A stretch of DNA of 64,000 bases from IMG/VR virus record IMGVR_UViG_3300023174_000057, positions 1 to 64,000 of that record; one strand, 5' to 3'. Numbering within the stretch: position 1 is the stretch's first letter; the number at the start of each line of letters is the position of its first letter. Of this stretch, positions 2,853-35,304 are shown in pieces. This DNA comes from a virus. The translations under genes and the position numbers were made by a program. The notes beneath the pieces are model-generated. The model was given only the letters and a program-made list of their open reading frames with translations. It did not search any database and had not been told where the DNA came from.

Positions 2853-3113
2853 CCCCCCTTCGGTGGGACAAGGGGTGTTCTCCCACGGACCCCCCCTTCG
2901 GTGGGACAAGCCCCCTCTCTGGGGGCGTAACGTGCCTCATGGGCTACCGGGTTCTGACGGGCGATTGCCGAGAGACGCTCAAGACTCTGGGGGACGGGAC
3001 CGTCCAGTGCGTGGTGACCTCGCCCCCGTACTGGGGCTTGAGGGATTTGACCTGTTGGGTGAGTTCTCCAAGTAGGGTTCCCCCGGAACGACCCCCTTCG
3101 GTGAGACAAGGGG
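2853..3113 (+). repeat. three copies of ACCCCC(C)TTCGGTG(G/A)GACAAG
   Basis: Copies near 2852, 2889 and 3091. Confidence 0.7.
2939..3047 (+). pseudogene. N-terminal fragment of an N4/N6 DNA methyltransferase
   Basis: MGYRVLTGDCRETLKTL...VQCVVTSPPYWGLRD (SPPY motif IV); similarity then ends. Confidence 0.7.
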
Positions 3114-3156
3114 CCTTTTCCTGTTACGGGGTGGGGGGTGTCTCCGTGGTGGGGTC

Positions 3157-3429
3157 ATGGAAGCGACGTGCGGCGTCAAGTACAGGCTCACGAACGGCAC
3201 TCTCGACCTCGTGCGGGTGGTGAGCCCCACGGGTCGTGGGGTCACCGTCCGTGGTGGTGGCATCCCTGCCACGGTCGCCCGGAAGGTGCTGGGGTCGGGT
3301 GCGAAGCTCTTCGACACCCGGGTGGACCTGTGCGGCACCCGTGTGTACGAGCTCGATTGGTACGAGGGCACCATGTCTCTCACCTACGGGGAGATGCGGG
3401 CGGTGTTGGTGGCGGCGGGGTGTTGGTGA
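3157..3429 (+). CDS. hypothetical protein
   Basis: Behind the class I motif; first gene of a coupled operon. Confidence 0.65.
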   Translation: MEATCGVKYRLTNGTLDLVRVVSPTGRGVTVRGGGIPATVARKVLGSGAKLFDTRVDLCGTRVYELDWYEGTMSLTYGEMRAVLVAAGCW

Positions 3430-3569
3430 TGGTAGTGGTCCGTGGGGGTTCCTACCGCTACCGCTACGGGGTGATGGTTCGGGCGGCGAAGGTTTGCAAG
3501 GAGCCTCCCGAGTCGCTCGACCGGGAGCCCGGGTTCCGCACCCGCCTACCTGTGAGGCAACCGAGATGA
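3429..3569 (+). CDS. FGE/CLec C-terminal-segment mini-protein 1 (46 aa)
   Basis: MVVVRGGSYRYRYGVMVRAAK...PGFRTRLPVRQPR; TGATG overlap with the upstream gene. Confidence 0.7.
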   Translation: MVVVRGGSYRYRYGVMVRAAKVCKEPPESLDREPGFRTRLPVRQPR

Positions 3570-3736
3570 CCAAGAACGGCAACGAGTCACCGATCTTGGG
3601 CGTTCGCGGCGGCAACTGGGACAACGACCGTGGGTTCTATGTGCGGGTGTCGTTGGAGGAGATTCAGTTTGGCTCCCAGCTTCGGGGCACGGACACGGGT
3701 TTCCGCACCTCCCTCTCTGCGAGGCAACCGAGATGA
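3566..3736 (+). CDS. FGE/CLec C-terminal-segment mini-protein 2 (56 aa)
   Basis: VRGGNWDN...TGFRTSLSARQPR; ATGA overlap. Confidence 0.75.
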   Translation: MTKNGNESPILGVRGGNWDNDRGFYVRVSLEEIQFGSQLRGTDTGFRTSLSARQPR

Positions 3737-3888
3737 ACACCCCGTACTTCCGCATCCGAGGGGGATGCTTGATCACCCGCGATCCGTGGTGGGTTCGCCC
3801 TGCGCTCGACACCCCACAGAAGGCTGACGTGAACATCAACAGTCTCGGGTTCCGCACCCATCTCCCTGCAAGGATGCCCCGCGTATGA
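3733..3888 (+). CDS. FGE/CLec C-terminal-segment mini-protein 3 (51 aa; not in ORF track)
   Basis: MNTPYFRIRGGCLITRDPWWVRPALDTPQKADVNINSLGFRTHLPARMPRV; ATGA overlap. Confidence 0.75.
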   Translation: MNTPYFRIRGGCLITRDPWWVRPALDTPQKADVNINSLGFRTHLPARMPRV

Positions 3889-4058
3889 GCGCCACCAAAC
3901 TTCGAGAAGAATCCCACCTTGTTCTTCATGGGGGTTCTTGGAACCGCACGGGTACCCGCACCTTGCGTGCCGACTTCCAAGGTGGGGAGCGACCCGCGCA
4001 TTTCGACGACTGTCTGGGGTTCCGCACGATGCTGCCGGGGCGTAAGGCACGGACATGA
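3885..4058 (+). CDS. FGE/CLec C-terminal-segment mini-protein 4 (57 aa; not in ORF track)
   Basis: MSATKLREESHLVLHGGSWNRTGTRTLRADFQGGERPAHFDDCLGFRTMLPGRKART; ATGA overlaps on both sides. Confidence 0.75.
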   Translation: MSATKLREESHLVLHGGSWNRTGTRTLRADFQGGERPAHFDDCLGFRTMLPGRKART

Positions 4059-4591
4059 AGCTCATCGTCTTGGAAGGCTGCGACGGCACGGGCACGAGCA
4101 CCAACGCGAAGAAGTTGGGGGAGGCCCTCCAGCGCGAGGGCTACAAGACCCTCGTCTACCACCACCCCCCGCACCGTCCGGGTGGGGGTGACTGGGAGCG
4201 GTCCCTGCACTACGCGAGGGAGAGGGCCGAGATGGCCACCCGCACGGCGGACGACACGGTGGTGGTGGCGGACCGCTGGGTGTCCAGCACGGATGCGATT
4301 GCCATGACCCTCGACGGCGAGGTTCGTGGGAGGCTGCTGGGTCTCACTGCACTGGAGAGGCAGTCTCTCCCGACCCCCACGCTCATCGTCCTGCTCGACG
4401 CCCCCGACGCGGTGCTGGACGAGAGGCTCACGGCCCGTGGCGAGTCTCCCCCTCCGCAACGAGGTGAGCTTCGTCGGGTGTACCGGGAGAGCATCACCAT
4501 GACGTGCGACGTGACGGTGAACACGGCGGGAGATAGCGGTCGGGTGTCTGACCGTCTGTTGTCCTTGGCCAAGGCTGCACTGGAGGACTGA
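4055..4591 (+). CDS. tmk: thymidylate kinase-like protein
   Basis: IVLEGCDGTGTST P-loop (Lys replaced by Thr), VVADRW and LLDAP motifs. Confidence 0.8.
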   Translation: MKLIVLEGCDGTGTSTNAKKLGEALQREGYKTLVYHHPPHRPGGGDWERSLHYARERAEMATRTADDTVVVADRWVSSTDAIAMTLDGEVRGRLLGLTALERQSLPTPTLIVLLDAPDAVLDERLTARGESPPPQRGELRRVYRESITMTCDVTVNTAGDSGRVSDRLLSLAKAALED

Positions 4592-4592
4592 C

Positions 4593-4877
4593 ATGAGCAA
4601 GGGTCTACCGAGGGTCTGGAAGGCGACGGTCACCTACGAGGTGTACGTTCTCTCACACCGCGCCGACGAAGCAGCGGACTGCGCCAAGCTGAACCGGGAC
4701 TGCTACGCGGACATCGAGCACACGGGGGTGTCCAGCGCCGTGGTGGTGACGGACATCGGGTCCGTGGAAGACCCGACGAGTCTCCCGTGGGTGGCGATGG
4801 ACGTGAAGAACCCCGACCACAGGGAAGACATCACCGTGCGCGAGTGGCTGGAGCGCATCAAGGGAGAAGAGAAGTGA
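4593..4877 (+). CDS. hypothetical protein (paralog of next gene)
   Basis: VYV...LPWV...DITVREW pattern shared with 4874-5209. Confidence 0.65.
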   Translation: MSKGLPRVWKATVTYEVYVLSHRADEAADCAKLNRDCYADIEHTGVSSAVVVTDIGSVEDPTSLPWVAMDVKNPDHREDITVREWLERIKGEEK

Positions 4878-5209
4878 GCGAACCGAAGCTGTACCGGGTG
4901 AGAATCGAAGCCGACGTGTACGTCGTCGCGGCCAGCGAGCACGACGCCGAGGAGTACGCCCTGCGGGAGAGTGACGTGGTGGACGACGCGATGGAGCACG
5001 CCGAAGCCACGGCTTCCGTCGTCACGGCGAAGAGTCTGAGCGGCGCGGAGGAGAACTGCCTCCCGTGGGTGGACGACGACTTGGAAGACGGCGAGGTTGA
5101 CCGGGACCGCACGGTGAAGGCGTGGGCGGAACTGAACGACGCCGCCACGGCCCAAGCCAAGCGCGAGCGTGAGTTCAACGCCAAGCAACTGAACATCCCG
5201 GGGACGTGA
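4874..5209 (+). CDS. hypothetical protein (paralog of previous gene)
   Basis: GTGA-coupled; VYV...LPWV...DRTVKAW. Confidence 0.65.
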   Translation: MSEPKLYRVRIEADVYVVAASEHDAEEYALRESDVVDDAMEHAEATASVVTAKSLSGAEENCLPWVDDDLEDGEVDRDRTVKAWAELNDAATAQAKREREFNAKQLNIPGT

Positions 5210-5424
5210 TGCGAACCTACCACATTCGCATGATGGACGACTACGGGTGGACCTTGGGGAAGGTATCCCCCGACGCGCCCAACAACAGCGCCGTTCTCAC
5301 CGTCGAGCGCGACGGCACCCGCTGGATCAGCCAAGTCAACGTGGACCGCCTGTCCATCGCAGACCTTTCCTCCCTCGCGGAGTTCTGCGCGCACGCGAAG
5401 CTCGACACTGGGCGCGGGACGTGA
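5206..5424 (+). CDS. hypothetical protein
   Basis: Coupled ORF. Confidence 0.55.
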   Translation: MMRTYHIRMMDDYGWTLGKVSPDAPNNSAVLTVERDGTRWISQVNVDRLSIADLSSLAEFCAHAKLDTGRGT

Positions 5425-5654
5425 CCGTGGCCGTGACCGTAGAAGACCTCCGAACGCTGATCGGGGACGTGCTGTTCCAACGGGGTTATGGTTCGTGGTC
5501 CTTCGACCCGTACACGCGGGATCACGAACCCGGTTGGCACTACGTCCAAGTGGACGCCCGTTCCTACGACGTTCGTAGGCTGACGGTCAACGAGCGGGGT
5601 CGTACGGAAGCCGAAGCCTTGCGGGGTGTACTGGACTCCCTTGGAGTACCGTGA
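5421..5654 (+). CDS. hypothetical protein
   Basis: GTGA-coupled ORF. Confidence 0.55.
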   Translation: MTVAVTVEDLRTLIGDVLFQRGYGSWSFDPYTRDHEPGWHYVQVDARSYDVRRLTVNERGRTEAEALRGVLDSLGVP

Positions 5655-5913
5655 ACCTAGATCAAGCCCGAGCTCTGACCGCACGGTTCCCCGCCTATTC
5701 CCCGCCCCCCGTAGCGGGCTCCCGGTAGCGGTGGTTTCTGCCGCTTCCCACCGCGCACCGTCCCCTGAAGCCGAGCGGCGACAGGGGGGTGGGCTGGGAG
5801 CCCGCCGCCGACAAGGCTGACCTCCGGGCGTTGATGGATCGGATGTTCCCGCCCCGCTAGTATCCCTGTTGACGCCCGTACTCGACGAGTGAGCCCACAC
5901 CCGGAGCTAAACG

Positions 5914-7122
5914 ATGCCCCACGATCCCTTCCAAACCCCCGATCTCAACGACGTTCACCGCCGCATCCTCGACGCGGTGGGGTTCAAGGTACCGGCGTCG
6001 GCCAACCTCGACGATGCCCGCGATGCGCTGGAGGACCACTACCTCGCGATGAAGCGGGGGCCGGAACGGGACCGTTTTGAGACGGCCTTCACGCTGATGA
6101 TATACGGAGACGTGGTGGACGGAAAACCCGAGAGTCAAACCCAATCGAAGATCCGAGCACTGGAGCAGTCGGGGAAGACGGCTCACTCACGGAGACAAGA
6201 GATGAAGAAGAAGTCCAGCGAGCGCGGTGCCGGGTCTGACGGCAACTACATGACCAAGCAGAACTTGTGGCTGCTGCACCGGATGACGGAGCTCCTGTAC
6301 AAGGGCATCCCGGACGGTGTGCTCCTGCCTGATTGGGCTGAGTCCAAGATCAACAGCGCCGCCGACCACATCAAAGCCGTGGCGGGCTGGGCGATGCACG
6401 AGTCCCACGGGGATGACCTCCACCCCGCCCCGGAGGAGAACCCGATCCACCTCGGTGACCGGCACCTCCGTGCGGGCCTCATCCGTCTGGCTCACGCCAA
6501 CCCAGAACTTCGTCCGCACCTCCTCCCCCTTCTCACCAAGGTGGCAGCGGAGGAGGTGAACGTCCCCGGCAAGCACATCCTCGACAATGCCACGGTGTAT
6601 GGCGAGGCCGAGGTGTCAGGCGGTGCCAAGGTGTATGACGACGCCAAGGTGCGGGGCGGTGCCAAGGTGTCTGGCACTGCCGAGGTGAAGAACAACGCCG
6701 AGGTGTTGGGTAATGCCAAGGTGTCAGGCACCGCCCATGTGTATGGCAACGCCAAGGTGTTTCACAAATCAAAGGTGTATGGCGGTGGCCGTGTGTTTGG
6801 CTATGCCAAGGTGGGAGACTTGGCCGAGGTGTATGGCGAGGCCGAGGTGTATGGCACCGCCGAGGTGTATGGCACCGCCAAGGTGTATGAGGATGCCAAG
6901 GTGTATGGCACCGCCGAGGTGTATGATGGTGCCGAGGTGTATGGCACCGCCGATGTGTTTGGCGCTGCCAAGGTGTATGGCACCGCCAAGGTGTATGGCA
7001 CCGCACAGGTGTATGGCGAGGCCGAAATCAGTGGGACCGCAATCATCACGGGCGGTGAGTGGGACGGGTCGGAAGGCCCGATCACCAAAGGTAAGTGGAA
7101 GTCTCCCGGCGTTCCCGCCTGA
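5914..7122 (+). CDS. composite protein: N-terminal domain, internal LRxxLIRLAH tag, hexapeptide-repeat left-handed beta-helix
   Basis: Tag at about 6466-6546, then about 25 VYG(T/N/E)A(K/E)-type repeats (6583-7050). Confidence 0.8.
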   Translation: MPHDPFQTPDLNDVHRRILDAVGFKVPASANLDDARDALEDHYLAMKRGPERDRFETAFTLMIYGDVVDGKPESQTQSKIRALEQSGKTAHSRRQEMKKKSSERGAGSDGNYMTKQNLWLLHRMTELLYKGIPDGVLLPDWAESKINSAADHIKAVAGWAMHESHGDDLHPAPEENPIHLGDRHLRAGLIRLAHANPELRPHLLPLLTKVAAEEVNVPGKHILDNATVYGEAEVSGGAKVYDDAKVRGGAKVSGTAEVKNNAEVLGNAKVSGTAHVYGNAKVFHKSKVYGGGRVFGYAKVGDLAEVYGEAEVYGTAEVYGTAKVYEDAKVYGTAEVYDGAEVYGTADVFGAAKVYGTAKVYGTAQVYGEAEISGTAIITGGEWDGSEGPITKGKWKSPGVPA

Positions 7123-9021: not shown

Positions 9022-9059
9022 ACGGAGGCGGGGTCGGGGCTGTAACCGAGAATCGTCAC
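9022..9059 (-). repeat. 38-nt direct repeat containing the class I promoter; partner at 10409-10446
   Basis: 37/38 identity; the pair flanks the FGE scaffold plus mini-gene module. Confidence 0.85.
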
Positions 9060-9229
9060 CGGGTTTGTCTTACCGGGAGGGCGCACCGAAAACCGAGGCC
9101 GTAGCTACGGTCCGCAGGCCCGTACGCGTAGCGAGACGCGGCGCGCACCCACGACGGTACGCTGTCGTTCCAACCGCCGCCGCGGTAGACGCGGAGACGG
9201 GTGTCCGTGGGCTTGGTGGTGGGGTTCAC
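9056..9229 (-). CDS. FGE/CLec C-terminal-segment mini-protein 7 (57 aa)
   Basis: RVYRGGGWNDSVPSWVRAASRYAYGPADRSYGLGFRCALPVRQTR; GTGA overlap. Confidence 0.8.
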   Translation of the reverse strand: MNPTTKPTDTRLRVYRGGGWNDSVPSWVRAASRYAYGPADRSYGLGFRCALPVRQTR

Positions 9230-9393
9230 GTTCGGGGTTCCCTTCCCCGCAACGCGCACCGAAACCCCAAGGCGCTGCCACGGTAAGCAGGCACGAGCGC
9301 GTTGCGAGACGCGGCGCGCACCCACGACGGTCCGCTGAAGTTCCAACAGCCGCCGCGAAAGACGGTGTCGGCGGGCTTGGTAGGGGGCTTCAT
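9226..9393 (-). CDS. FGE/CLec C-terminal-segment mini-protein 6 (55 aa)
   Basis: VFRGGCWNFSGPSWVRAASRNALVPAYRGSALGFRCALRGREPRT; ATGA overlap. Confidence 0.8.
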   Translation of the reverse strand: MKPPTKPADTVFRGGCWNFSGPSWVRAASRNALVPAYRGSALGFRCALRGREPRT

Positions 9394-9566
9394 ACTCGGG
9401 GTTCCCTTACTGACAGGTGGGTGCGAAAACTCATGTTGGTTTCGCGCCACTCGGGCTCGTACGAGCCCCGGTTGTCGGGCCGCATGAACGGGGCGTAGGA
9501 GAGTCCCCAACCGCCGCCCACCAGTACGCGGGGGAGGTTGGGGTCCGGGGGCTGTGCCCGTCTCAC
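9390..9566 (-). CDS. FGE/CLec C-terminal-segment mini-protein 5 (58 aa)
   Basis: GTG start overlaps the scaffold TAG (TAGTG); RVLVGGGW...MSFRTHLSVREPRV. Confidence 0.7.
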   Translation of the reverse strand: MRRAQPPDPNLPRVLVGGGWGLSYAPFMRPDNRGSYEPEWRETNMSFRTHLSVREPRV

Positions 9567-10387
9567 TAGTGGACGGTGCTGGTCCACTCCCAGACGTTGC
9601 CGCTCATGTCGAGCAGCCCGTAGGGGGAGGCACCCTTGGGGCGGGCGGGGGTGCCGTCCGGGTTGAAGCACGGCGCGGTGCGCTCCTTCTGGGAGTGAAT
9701 GCTCGACCAGCAGAGCTCATCCTTGGGGGCGTCGTTGCCCCACGGAAACTTGCGCCCGTCGTTGCCGCGCGCGGCGCGCTCCCACTGTTCCTCCGTGGGG
9801 AGGCCCACCCCCGCCCACTTGGCGAACTCACGGGCGTCCCAGTAGGACACCTCGACCACCGGGTGGTCGCTCAGGTCCACCGTCGCGCCCGACTTGTCCG
9901 TGACGGTGGTGGGCTTGAGCTCCTTGCCCATGTCCGTGGCGTACCAGTTCCACTGGCGCACGGTCGTGGGCGTGAGGGCCATGAAGCCCGCTTCGACGTT
10001 GACCGCCTTTCGGGACTGCGACTCGTCGTCGCCCATCGTGAACCCCACCGCTGCCTCGACGTAGCAGAGGGGCAGGGTGTTCCCATCGGGCAGCACATGG
10101 TTGACGACCCACGTCCCGCCGACCTCGCGGTTGGTGGGCCATTCCAGCACCACCTCGCCCGCTTCGATGCGGGGGCGCGGCACCACCCCGTAGACGGGGT
10201 GGTAGTGGAAGCTCCACACCTCCGTCGCCGTGAGCACCCGGAGGGCGGTGATTCCCTCCGGGAGGTTGAGGGTGGTCACCACCCCGACGACCTCGTCGGG
10301 GTGGTCGCTCTTGGGGAGGGGGTTGCTGGGCTCGTAGTCGAGCCAGCCCCCGCGCTCCCCCTCGCAAAAGCACACTTGGATCTTCAT
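9566..10387 (-). CDS. FGE-sulfatase (SUMF1/CLec-fold) domain protein lacking its C-terminal segment
   Basis: FTMG, HPVVEVSYWDA, LPTEEQWERAARG, FPWG, YGLLDMSGNVWEW, then stop after five residues. Confidence 0.9.
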   Translation of the reverse strand: MKIQVCFCEGERGGWLDYEPSNPLPKSDHPDEVVGVVTTLNLPEGITALRVLTATEVWSFHYHPVYGVVPRPRIEAGEVVLEWPTNREVGGTWVVNHVLPDGNTLPLCYVEAAVGFTMGDDESQSRKAVNVEAGFMALTPTTVRQWNWYATDMGKELKPTTVTDKSGATVDLSDHPVVEVSYWDAREFAKWAGVGLPTEEQWERAARGNDGRKFPWGNDAPKDELCWSSIHSQKERTAPCFNPDGTPARPKGASPYGLLDMSGNVWEWTSTVH

Positions 10388-34972: not shown

Positions 34973-35146
34973 TCATCGCGGTTCCCTTCCCCGCAACGCG
35001 CACCGAAACCCCAAGTCGCCGCCACGGCTCGCAGGCACGCCCGAGTCGCGAGACGCGGCACGCACCCACGACGGCTCGCTGTGGTACCAACTGCCGCCGC
35101 TAACGACGCGGAGACGGTTGTTGGAGGGCTTGAAGGGGGGGTTCAT
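34973..35146 (-). CDS. FGE/CLec C-terminal-segment mini-protein 9 (57 aa)
   Basis: RVVSGGSWYHSEPSWVRAASRDSGVPASRGGDLGFRCALRGREPR; ATGA overlap. Confidence 0.8.
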   Translation of the reverse strand: MNPPFKPSNNRLRVVSGGSWYHSEPSWVRAASRDSGVPASRGGDLGFRCALRGREPR

Positions 35147-35304
35147 ACTCGGGGTTGCCTTACTGGCAGGTGGGTACGGAACCCCAGACTGCCGCCCCGG
35201 ATCGCAGGCCCGCGCGCGTCGCGAGACGCGACGGGCACCCAAGACGGTCCGCCGCTGTACCAAGACCCGCCACGAATCACGCGAAGCCGGTTGCCGATCC
35301 TCAC
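35143..35304 (-). CDS. FGE/CLec C-terminal-segment mini-protein 8 (53 aa)
   Basis: RVIRGGSWYSGGPSWVPVASRDARGPAIRGGSLGFRTHLPVRQPRV; GTGA overlap. Confidence 0.8.
   Translation of the reverse strand: MRIGNRLRVIRGGSWYSGGPSWVPVASRDARGPAIRGGSLGFRTHLPVRQPRV

Follow-up and report, generated by a model that had tools for sequence, protein, structure and literature searches.

Among natural systems that hypermutate proteins in a targeted way, the best known are the variable proteins of diversity-generating retroelements (DGRs). In every case known to us a single polypeptide includes the variable region and is encoded within the genome that owns the reverse transcriptase (RT). In Neisseria pilE/pilS, Borrelia vlsE and the shufflons, cassettes without start codons are expressed only after rearrangement into one expression site. 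Here we analyse the first 64 kb (64,000 nt, hereafter the window) of the IMG/VR viral contig IMGVR_UViG_3300023174_000057 (166,764 bp, 64.5% GC, estimated to be 39% complete), which holds a truncated lectin-type gene, the scaffold, together with separate mini-genes for the module that this gene lacks. Our subject is array A, four such mini-genes chained in front of a thymidylate kinase gene (tmk) at positions 3429-4058 on the plus strand. What is new here is a non-templated, conserved class of module that stands beside the template-matching modules of a split lectin.

TvpA of Treponema denticola (PDB 2Y3C) is a DGR variable protein of the formylglycine-generating enzyme (FGE) type; it has a like fold, and its counterpart of the mini-gene module is the part bearing the variable region. 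In TvpA and all described targets the variable region ends one polypeptide, whereas in the phage the body and the end are separate open reading frames (ORFs), the ends number 16, and the four of array A are not templated. Multi-target DGRs are known from the DiGReF (PMC3521204) and MetaCSST (PMC6642488) surveys, with one template, several variable regions and coexisting stable paralogues that lack a variable region. Those paralogues, however, are full-length genes in an RT-owning genome, unlike the 46-57-aa module-only ORFs found here on a contig without an RT gene. A single ORF of three tandem FGE paralogues has been described in the DGR literature. Cellular DGRs diversify caspase/STAND-lectin conflict sensors, which have been proposed to be hypermutated antigen sensors (Dore et al. 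2024, PMC10907252); compared with these, the phage copies are split and without an effector domain, and array A is beyond the reach of the template. The phage resembles the silent-cassette systems and shufflons in storing alternative end segments for one constant protein in arrays, with signs of exchange between arrays, but each of its units is coupled and begins at a start codon of its own, and we saw no fused expression site. We found no description in the full-text literature of a truncated scaffold with module-only genes, nor of modules beyond their template's reach. An FGE-type lectin domain is itself unusual for a phage of such size, since a survey of 224 jumbo phages reported none (PMC7824862).

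The four ORFs of array A are intact, each start overlaps the preceding stop and the last ORF overlaps the tmk start (ATGA). The first-pass annotation, which had been made from the sequence alone, described this coupling correctly, and the motifs GGx(W/Y/L) and GFRTxLxxR are present exactly as it quoted them. A1 (3429..3569) encodes a 46-aa tip module (RGGSY...GFRTRLPVRQPR), A2 (3566..3736) one of 56 aa (RGGNW...GFRTSLSARQPR), A3 (3733..3888) one of 51 aa (RGGCL...GFRTHLPARMPRV) and A4 (3885..4058) one of 57 aa (HGGSW...GFRTMLPGRKART). ATGA overlaps join A1 to A2, A2 to A3, A3 to A4 and, at 4055-4058, A4 to tmk. In the same order the GG motifs read GGSY, GGNW, GGCL and GGSW, and the GFRT motifs read GFRTRLPVR, GFRTSLSAR, GFRTHLPAR and GFRTMLPGR. 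A six-frame translation of the 166,764-bp contig contains the pattern GFRT.L..R five times (four in array A, one in array C), whereas 20 shuffles average 0.05. The two ORFs that had been remarked as missing from the ORF track are A1 and A2, which sit inside longer first-start ORF calls (3138-3569 and 3236-3736).

Array A lies 5.5 kb from the scaffold gene and in the opposite orientation, in keeping with the earlier statement that it stands away from the scaffold: the contig's only N-terminal FGE-sulfatase part is the gene at 9566..10387 on the minus strand. This gene combines an N-terminal domain of unassigned family with an FGE-sulfatase domain truncated to PF03781 profile positions 14-192 of 255, and ends after ...NVWEWTSTVH. 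The mini-ORFs correspond to positions of about 200-254, the C-terminal module absent from the scaffold, and 16 of them, 46-68 aa long, are arranged in four arrays (A to D) on the 167-kb contig. Nine copies (B2, B3, C2 and D1-D6) are here called canonical; their PF03781 matches score 12.8-36.2 bits over positions 196-254, with D1 (18.7) and D2 (12.8) under the 23.3-bit cut-off. Against a profile of these nine mini-ORFs alone, A1-A4 score 23.1, 23.8, 32.3 and 31.9 bits, and their shuffles (200 each) reach a maximum of 6.4 bits. The hydrophobic strand before GG, the GG-W turn, V-R, G-F-R and x-L-P of A1-A4 are counterparts of the predicted strands and turns of B3, with the loops replaced. The final 35 residues of the PorK FGE-like domain also give a weak alignment (E 0.5) with an A-type module profile. 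Judged from their sequences, A1-A4 are homologues of the C-terminal module of the FGE-sulfatase-type C-type-lectin domain, an identity that the first-pass annotation had missed.

The canonical copies bear the pattern of DGR variable regions. Their variable positions in the nucleotide alignment are the first two bases of NNC codons and isolated bases, and the variable region contains 51 invariant columns without any adenine; the flanks do contain adenine. The template predicted from this adenine-free pattern, WNNNEPSWVRAASRNTNEPANRNNNIGFRCA, was found with a conserved 27-mer at positions 1165-1300 of a 2,470-bp contig (L187, CAISKJ010000074.1) of the metagenome-assembled genome (MAG) 'uncultured delta proteobacterium KT_bin-2017', where it directly follows an RVT_1 gene and adjoins a full-length target gene. 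A second target in this MAG (L194, CAISKJ010000407.1) joins a caspase-like Peptidase_C14 domain to FGE-sulfatase, the architecture of the conflict sensors described in PMC10907252, and its variable region matches the template. The junction of this second target reads NVLEWTSTVDGNKRV, close to the scaffold end NVWEWTSTVH of the phage, and in the template MAG the module is found only within long, full-length proteins.

Array A departs from this pattern. Canonical copies differ from the template at 44-70% of its A sites and at 1-9% of its non-A sites; A1-A4, together with the diverged copies B1 and D0, differ at 44-75% of the A sites and at 23-41% of the non-A sites (31, 33, 23 and 41% for A1, A2, A3 and A4, respectively). 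The initiation-of-mutagenic-homing (IMH)-like element GGGTTTCGGTGCGCGCGCGGGG has 9-10 mismatches in A1-A4 versus 3-5 in the canonical copies (best gapless match, 22 nt), and a GC-rich IMH-like 3' end is common to the host variable regions and the canonical copies. Because of the mismatches at non-A sites and the missing IMH-like end, array A is not a current target of the template on CAISKJ010000074.1. It lacks each tested defining feature of an active DGR variable region, and we therefore class it as a derivative of such regions rather than a member. No RVT_1 match turned up in the 166,764-bp contig, G1 or G2 (the last two being related phage contigs); these are fragments, 39, 13 and 24% complete, and so leave the rest of the phage genome uncovered. 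Two sources of the RT are possible: the missing 60% of the phage may carry one, or the 2.5-kb MAG contig may itself be phage-derived. A template within the phage contig was considered and rejected, as 0 of the 16 units carry A at all variable sites.

Called orthologues of array A occur in a protein collection drawn from many independent assemblies, with 9 variants of A1, 14 of A2, 6 of A3 and 11 of A4 (40 in all), on related contigs that number at least seven and range from 3.4 to 272 kb. They include contigs of 5,825 bp (encoding P0119, P0063 and P0003), 14,411 bp (P0294, P0303 and P0305), 3,387 bp (P0292, P0302 and P0306), 4,870 bp (P0295, P0086 and P0309) and 265,895 bp (P0298 and P0304), and one of 271,727 bp whose A1-A3 proteins are identical to those described here. 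The module cores are near-invariant; that of A2, WDNDRRFYVRVSLEEIQFGSQLRGTDTGFR, shows two single substitutions only across its 14 variants. Changes cluster at the N-terminal junction and in the tail, all length changes are in frame, and none of the 40 variants shows hypervariability, only scattered single substitutions where canonical copies are hypervariable. B3's positional counterpart in G1 differs at about 13 of 30 variable-region residues. Together, the missing template match, the missing IMH-like end and the lack of hypervariability between relatives agree with the earlier suggestion that these modules may be fixed variants; they may also be older, as was suggested then, or may have another origin. 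Only one relative, of 5,825 bp, could be linked by contig: its tmk shows 90% identity, the A1 core 95% and the A3 core 91%; the neutral expectation at tmk-level divergence is roughly 75-80% identity, a figure that is an estimate and not a computed value. Searches with tmk, an A-type profile and a back-translated A2 core pattern gave no match in the viral or genome contig collections. The phage nucleotide collection gave none either.

The same variants record larger rearrangements. In one A4 variant (P0135, 77% identical) the 33-nt segment 3981-4013 is exactly inverted, which turns GGERPAHFDDC into TIVEMRGSLPT and leaves the frame open, with no stop; no inverted repeat flanking 3981-4013 was seen by eye. 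P0307 is a chimera of an A3 head joined to an A4 body, and nine A2 variants have an A4-like tail; P0149 is another of the relatives reshuffled within 3733-4058. Given the chimera, the tail swaps and the stable cores, units have been reshuffled and their cores kept, which suggests that arrays with fewer units exist in the genomes of those relatives.

Signs of protein-level constraint are also found within the four copies. Besides the start Met, A1-A4 have ten invariant amino-acid columns, eight of which use different synonymous codons. GC content at codon positions 1, 2 and 3 (GC1/2/3) of the called array A frames is 0.61/0.53/0.74, compared with 0.63/0.47/0.84 in long genes; the order GC3 > GC1 > GC2 holds for A1-A3 and for the pooled array, and the signal shifts with the frame at each junction, A4 alone being weak. 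The first-pass view that array A does not consist of decaying fragments is thus independently supported, by its intactness in at least seven other contigs, near-invariant cores, synonymous codon changes, coding-type GC and in-frame indels.

The scaffold is truncated at the same point in three relatives (92, 87 and 50% identity), and the number of units behind it is three in the present contig, two in G1 and none in L106 (100, 87 and 92% scaffold identity). In L106 (Ga0129333_10026218, 4400-5522) the 92%-identical scaffold ends ..TSTVHK at a TAA stop with no mini-gene behind, and the next gene follows the usual leader motif. Diverged modules are not restricted to the present contig: the syntenic locus of array C in G1 holds three different diverged modules, and arrays of such modules occur in two related phage contigs (87% and 50% scaffold identity), so that the existence of two module classes is a lineage feature. 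Among longer proteins no close fused form of the A-type modules was found, which is weak evidence. Fused modules of another kind do exist: four public proteins (P0150, P0151, P0154 and P0196) contain the C-terminal lectin module as 4-10 in-frame tandem repeats (up to ten in P0150 and P0154) beside or surrounding a single FGE scaffold; they are the fused equivalent of the mini-gene chains. A 1,349-bp contig of a Terriglobia MAG (L188, RGPS01000530.1) carries two phage-type modules with a PPTTKPTTKP linker, both in a single frame that no stop interrupts; this contig is probably a piece of phage DNA that was binned into the MAG.

The fit of body and module was modelled on P0322, the scaffold read through to the same-frame B3 with four stops as Gly, using an alignment of 81 natural homologues (78 of them full-length FGE domains). 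AlphaFold2 gave predicted local distance difference test (pLDDT) values of 87-97 in the FGE part and 85-96 in B3, with 30-39 over most of the out-of-frame linker. The best solved match of the model is TvpA (2y3c; Z 26.2, root-mean-square deviation 3.1 over 222 residues, model range 85-439), and body and module are therefore predicted to make one complete FGE-type lectin fold. In G2 (L098, IMGVR_UViG_3300023174_000096), a template-matching module without a stop runs in frame into the scaffold N-terminus at 5543-6574, a circularly permuted fusion.

The remaining arrays differ in make-up. Array B (9056..9566, minus strand, three copies) is chained to the scaffold stop through TAGTG, ATGA and GTGA and comprises the diverged, GFRT-type B1 and the template-matching B2 and B3. 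Array C (34973..35304, minus strand, two copies) comprises C1, intermediate with a GFRT tail, and the template-matching C2, and array D (seven copies, plus strand) lies beyond the 64-kb window at 65318-66556 of the contig. C1 (35143-35304) is a hybrid of a near-template variable part, differing at 73% of the A sites and 15% of the non-A sites, and an array-A-type tail (GFRT...PVRQPRV), such as partial overwriting or recombination of a fixed-type unit might leave. Despite a separation of 56 kb, B2 and D2 have nearly the same sequence.

A leader or promoter-like motif (TTACGG...CTCCGTGGTG...ATG) lies at 3124..3156 on the plus strand, directly 5' of the first gene of the array A unit. The same motif (CGATTCTCGGTTACRG ... 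CTCCGTGGTG ... ATG) stands directly 5' of the gene starts at 9045(-), 10432(-), 11330(-) and, on the contig, 69464(-), the scaffold gene being among those that it precedes, and is probably a phage promoter or 5' leader element. The first gene (3157..3429, plus strand) encodes a 90-aa protein of unassigned function, has a GC3 of 0.85, and overlaps the A1 start with its stop (TGATG); neither this ORF nor the small ORFs after tmk gave a Pfam, PHROG or Atlas lead. The tmk gene (4055..4591, plus strand) matches PF02223 Thymidylate_kin (E 1e-7, 32.3 bits, cut-off 27) and has relatives of 92-42% identity in public metagenomes. AGG or AAGG, read by eye, precedes the starts of A2, A3, A4 and tmk by 7-11 nt. 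No sigma-70-like site and no terminator-like site of note was found inside 3100-4600, and no Rfam family around array A. An SPPY-like motif noticed by eye at about 2940-3060 might mark a methyltransferase remnant, but this stretch had no Pfam match. Neighbouring genes encode a VWA-domain protein (PF00092, 183-1214) and an AAA_33 kinase-like protein (PF13671, 8018-8668, minus strand), with no evident tie to the arrays.

Based on these observations, we propose that array A holds template-escaped, fixed tip modules that are separately translated and complete the truncated scaffold in trans, a reading to which we assign a probability of about 0.5. The phage would encode one FGE-type C-type-lectin scaffold cut just past the NVWEW strand, and would encode the missing ligand-facing C-terminal module many times as separate ORFs of 46-68 aa. 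Most of these modules would be variable regions written from a DGR template repeat, which we found only beside the RT in the deltaproteobacterial MAG. The modules of array A would have lost homology to this template and to its 3' recognition element, so that in our proposal they can no longer be rewritten and are inherited fixed. Array A would be co-transcribed with tmk from one leader, and each module would be translated by termination-reinitiation at the overlapping stop and start codons, each peptide then completing one scaffold molecule non-covalently; translation, assembly in trans and ligand binding of these peptides are what we infer. The outcome would be fixed-specificity binders alongside hypervariable ones. 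We rejected frameshifting or read-through fusion of scaffold and modules as the principal route, since every junction shifts the frame by -1, GTC CAC TAG offers no slippery site, and the units all have starts of their own. We favour a functional split over a recent break, on the grounds that the truncation point is kept down to 50% identity, that one relative has a scaffold without a module and that no fused A-type form was found.

Several points weigh against this proposal. A1-A4 have no PF03781 match at E <= 1 in Pfam, and they are diverged at some framework positions, where SWVRAASR has become FYVRVSLE or RTLRADFQ. Array A may accordingly belong to another scaffold, encoded in the ~60% of the genome that is not sampled, or to no scaffold at all. 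The scaffold-B3 model shows fold compatibility and not assembly in trans, because the alignment was paired and in native order, and AlphaFold2 on the natural module-scaffold fusion of G2 gives the module pLDDT values of 26-39, with no docking predicted in that topology. ORFs of ~50 aa arise easily at 64.5% GC, and broken orthologues of array A would escape notice in a protein collection that lists called ORFs only. Overall, selection and fixation of array A appear likely.

The arrangement in front of tmk also admits a reading in which the modules are relics, old variable-region cassettes without peptide function whose frames are kept so that ribosomes can travel from the 90-aa ORF to tmk, the selection being on translation flow. 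Such relics would fit the overlap of A4 with the tmk start in a unit that is chained throughout, the changes in array make-up among relatives (the A3/A4 chimera P0307, and A2 with an A4-like tail), the fast gain and loss of other arrays (3, 2 and 0 copies behind the scaffold) and the ease with which short ORFs are kept open at this GC content. We nevertheless consider this account unlikely, as coupling alone does not explain why the A2 core is near-unchanged in 14 variants, why framework residues (GG, W/Y, VR, GFRT, L, R) are kept with synonymous codon changes, or why changes sit at junctions rather than in cores. Slightly less probable still is that the peptides are stand-alone small proteins directed against the host. 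Against it, 50 aa taken from a beta-rich fold would hardly fold by themselves, and array A is no longer closely like the host module. The peptides would be, for example, counter-defence mimics or competitors of the module in host DGR-diversified caspase-lectin sensors. This idea draws on the template-matching Peptidase_C14 plus FGE-sulfatase target of the template MAG, an architecture for which a role as antigen sensor in conflict systems has been proposed (PMC10907252), on the junction motif NVWEWTSTV common to the phage scaffold and the host target, and on L106, whose scaffold has no adjacent modules, so that a stoichiometric partnership is not required.

Two further readings leave the peptides incidental or the diversification active. 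Silent cassettes of the pilS/vls type, donor DNA moved behind the scaffold by recombination or gene conversion, would account for the near-identity of B2 and D2 across 56 kb, for the chimeras and tail swaps, including a B2/B3 hybrid in G1, and for the inversion of array A relative to the scaffold. However, an in-frame fusion of a module behind the scaffold was seen in no relative, each module begins at its own start codon with AGG/AAGG 7-11 nt before it, and the A-type modules are absent from the scaffold locus in 4 of 4 genomes. No resolvase or tyrosine recombinase gene was found in the 167-kb contig either, nor an RT gene, and this reading ranks as improbable, below the two preceding ones. 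It is highly improbable that array A consists of active variable regions of another, unseen template repeat: where canonical copies are hypervariable, its 40 variants have no more than scattered single changes, and there is no GC-rich IMH-like end. On the side of such a template are the diverged modules of relatives, which form subfamilies resembling other templates, one A2 codon that encodes N, G or C among relatives and needs two-base changes, and the fact that only 39% of the genome is sampled.

Fixed, separately translated tip modules that complete one split scaffold remain the reading that we prefer for array A. If the ligand-facing end is indeed kept as many separate mini-genes, the phage would store and deploy its binding diversity in a new manner, and keeping some modules fixed by drift out of the template's reach would likewise be new. 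Such a system would offer a small, modular scaffold-plus-peptide format for binder engineering. Array A is its best experimental handle, since its constancy across related phages allows a partner or ligand to be sought without a hypervariable target. More tentatively, and with doubts that outweigh our confidence, we suggest a two-tier binder repertoire on the one split scaffold, in which germline-fixed tips (array A and similar diverged modules) and tips continually rewritten from the template compete as separate peptides. If this is true, it would amount to recognition of an innate-plus-adaptive style in a virus, with escape from the template as the step that fixes a useful specificity.

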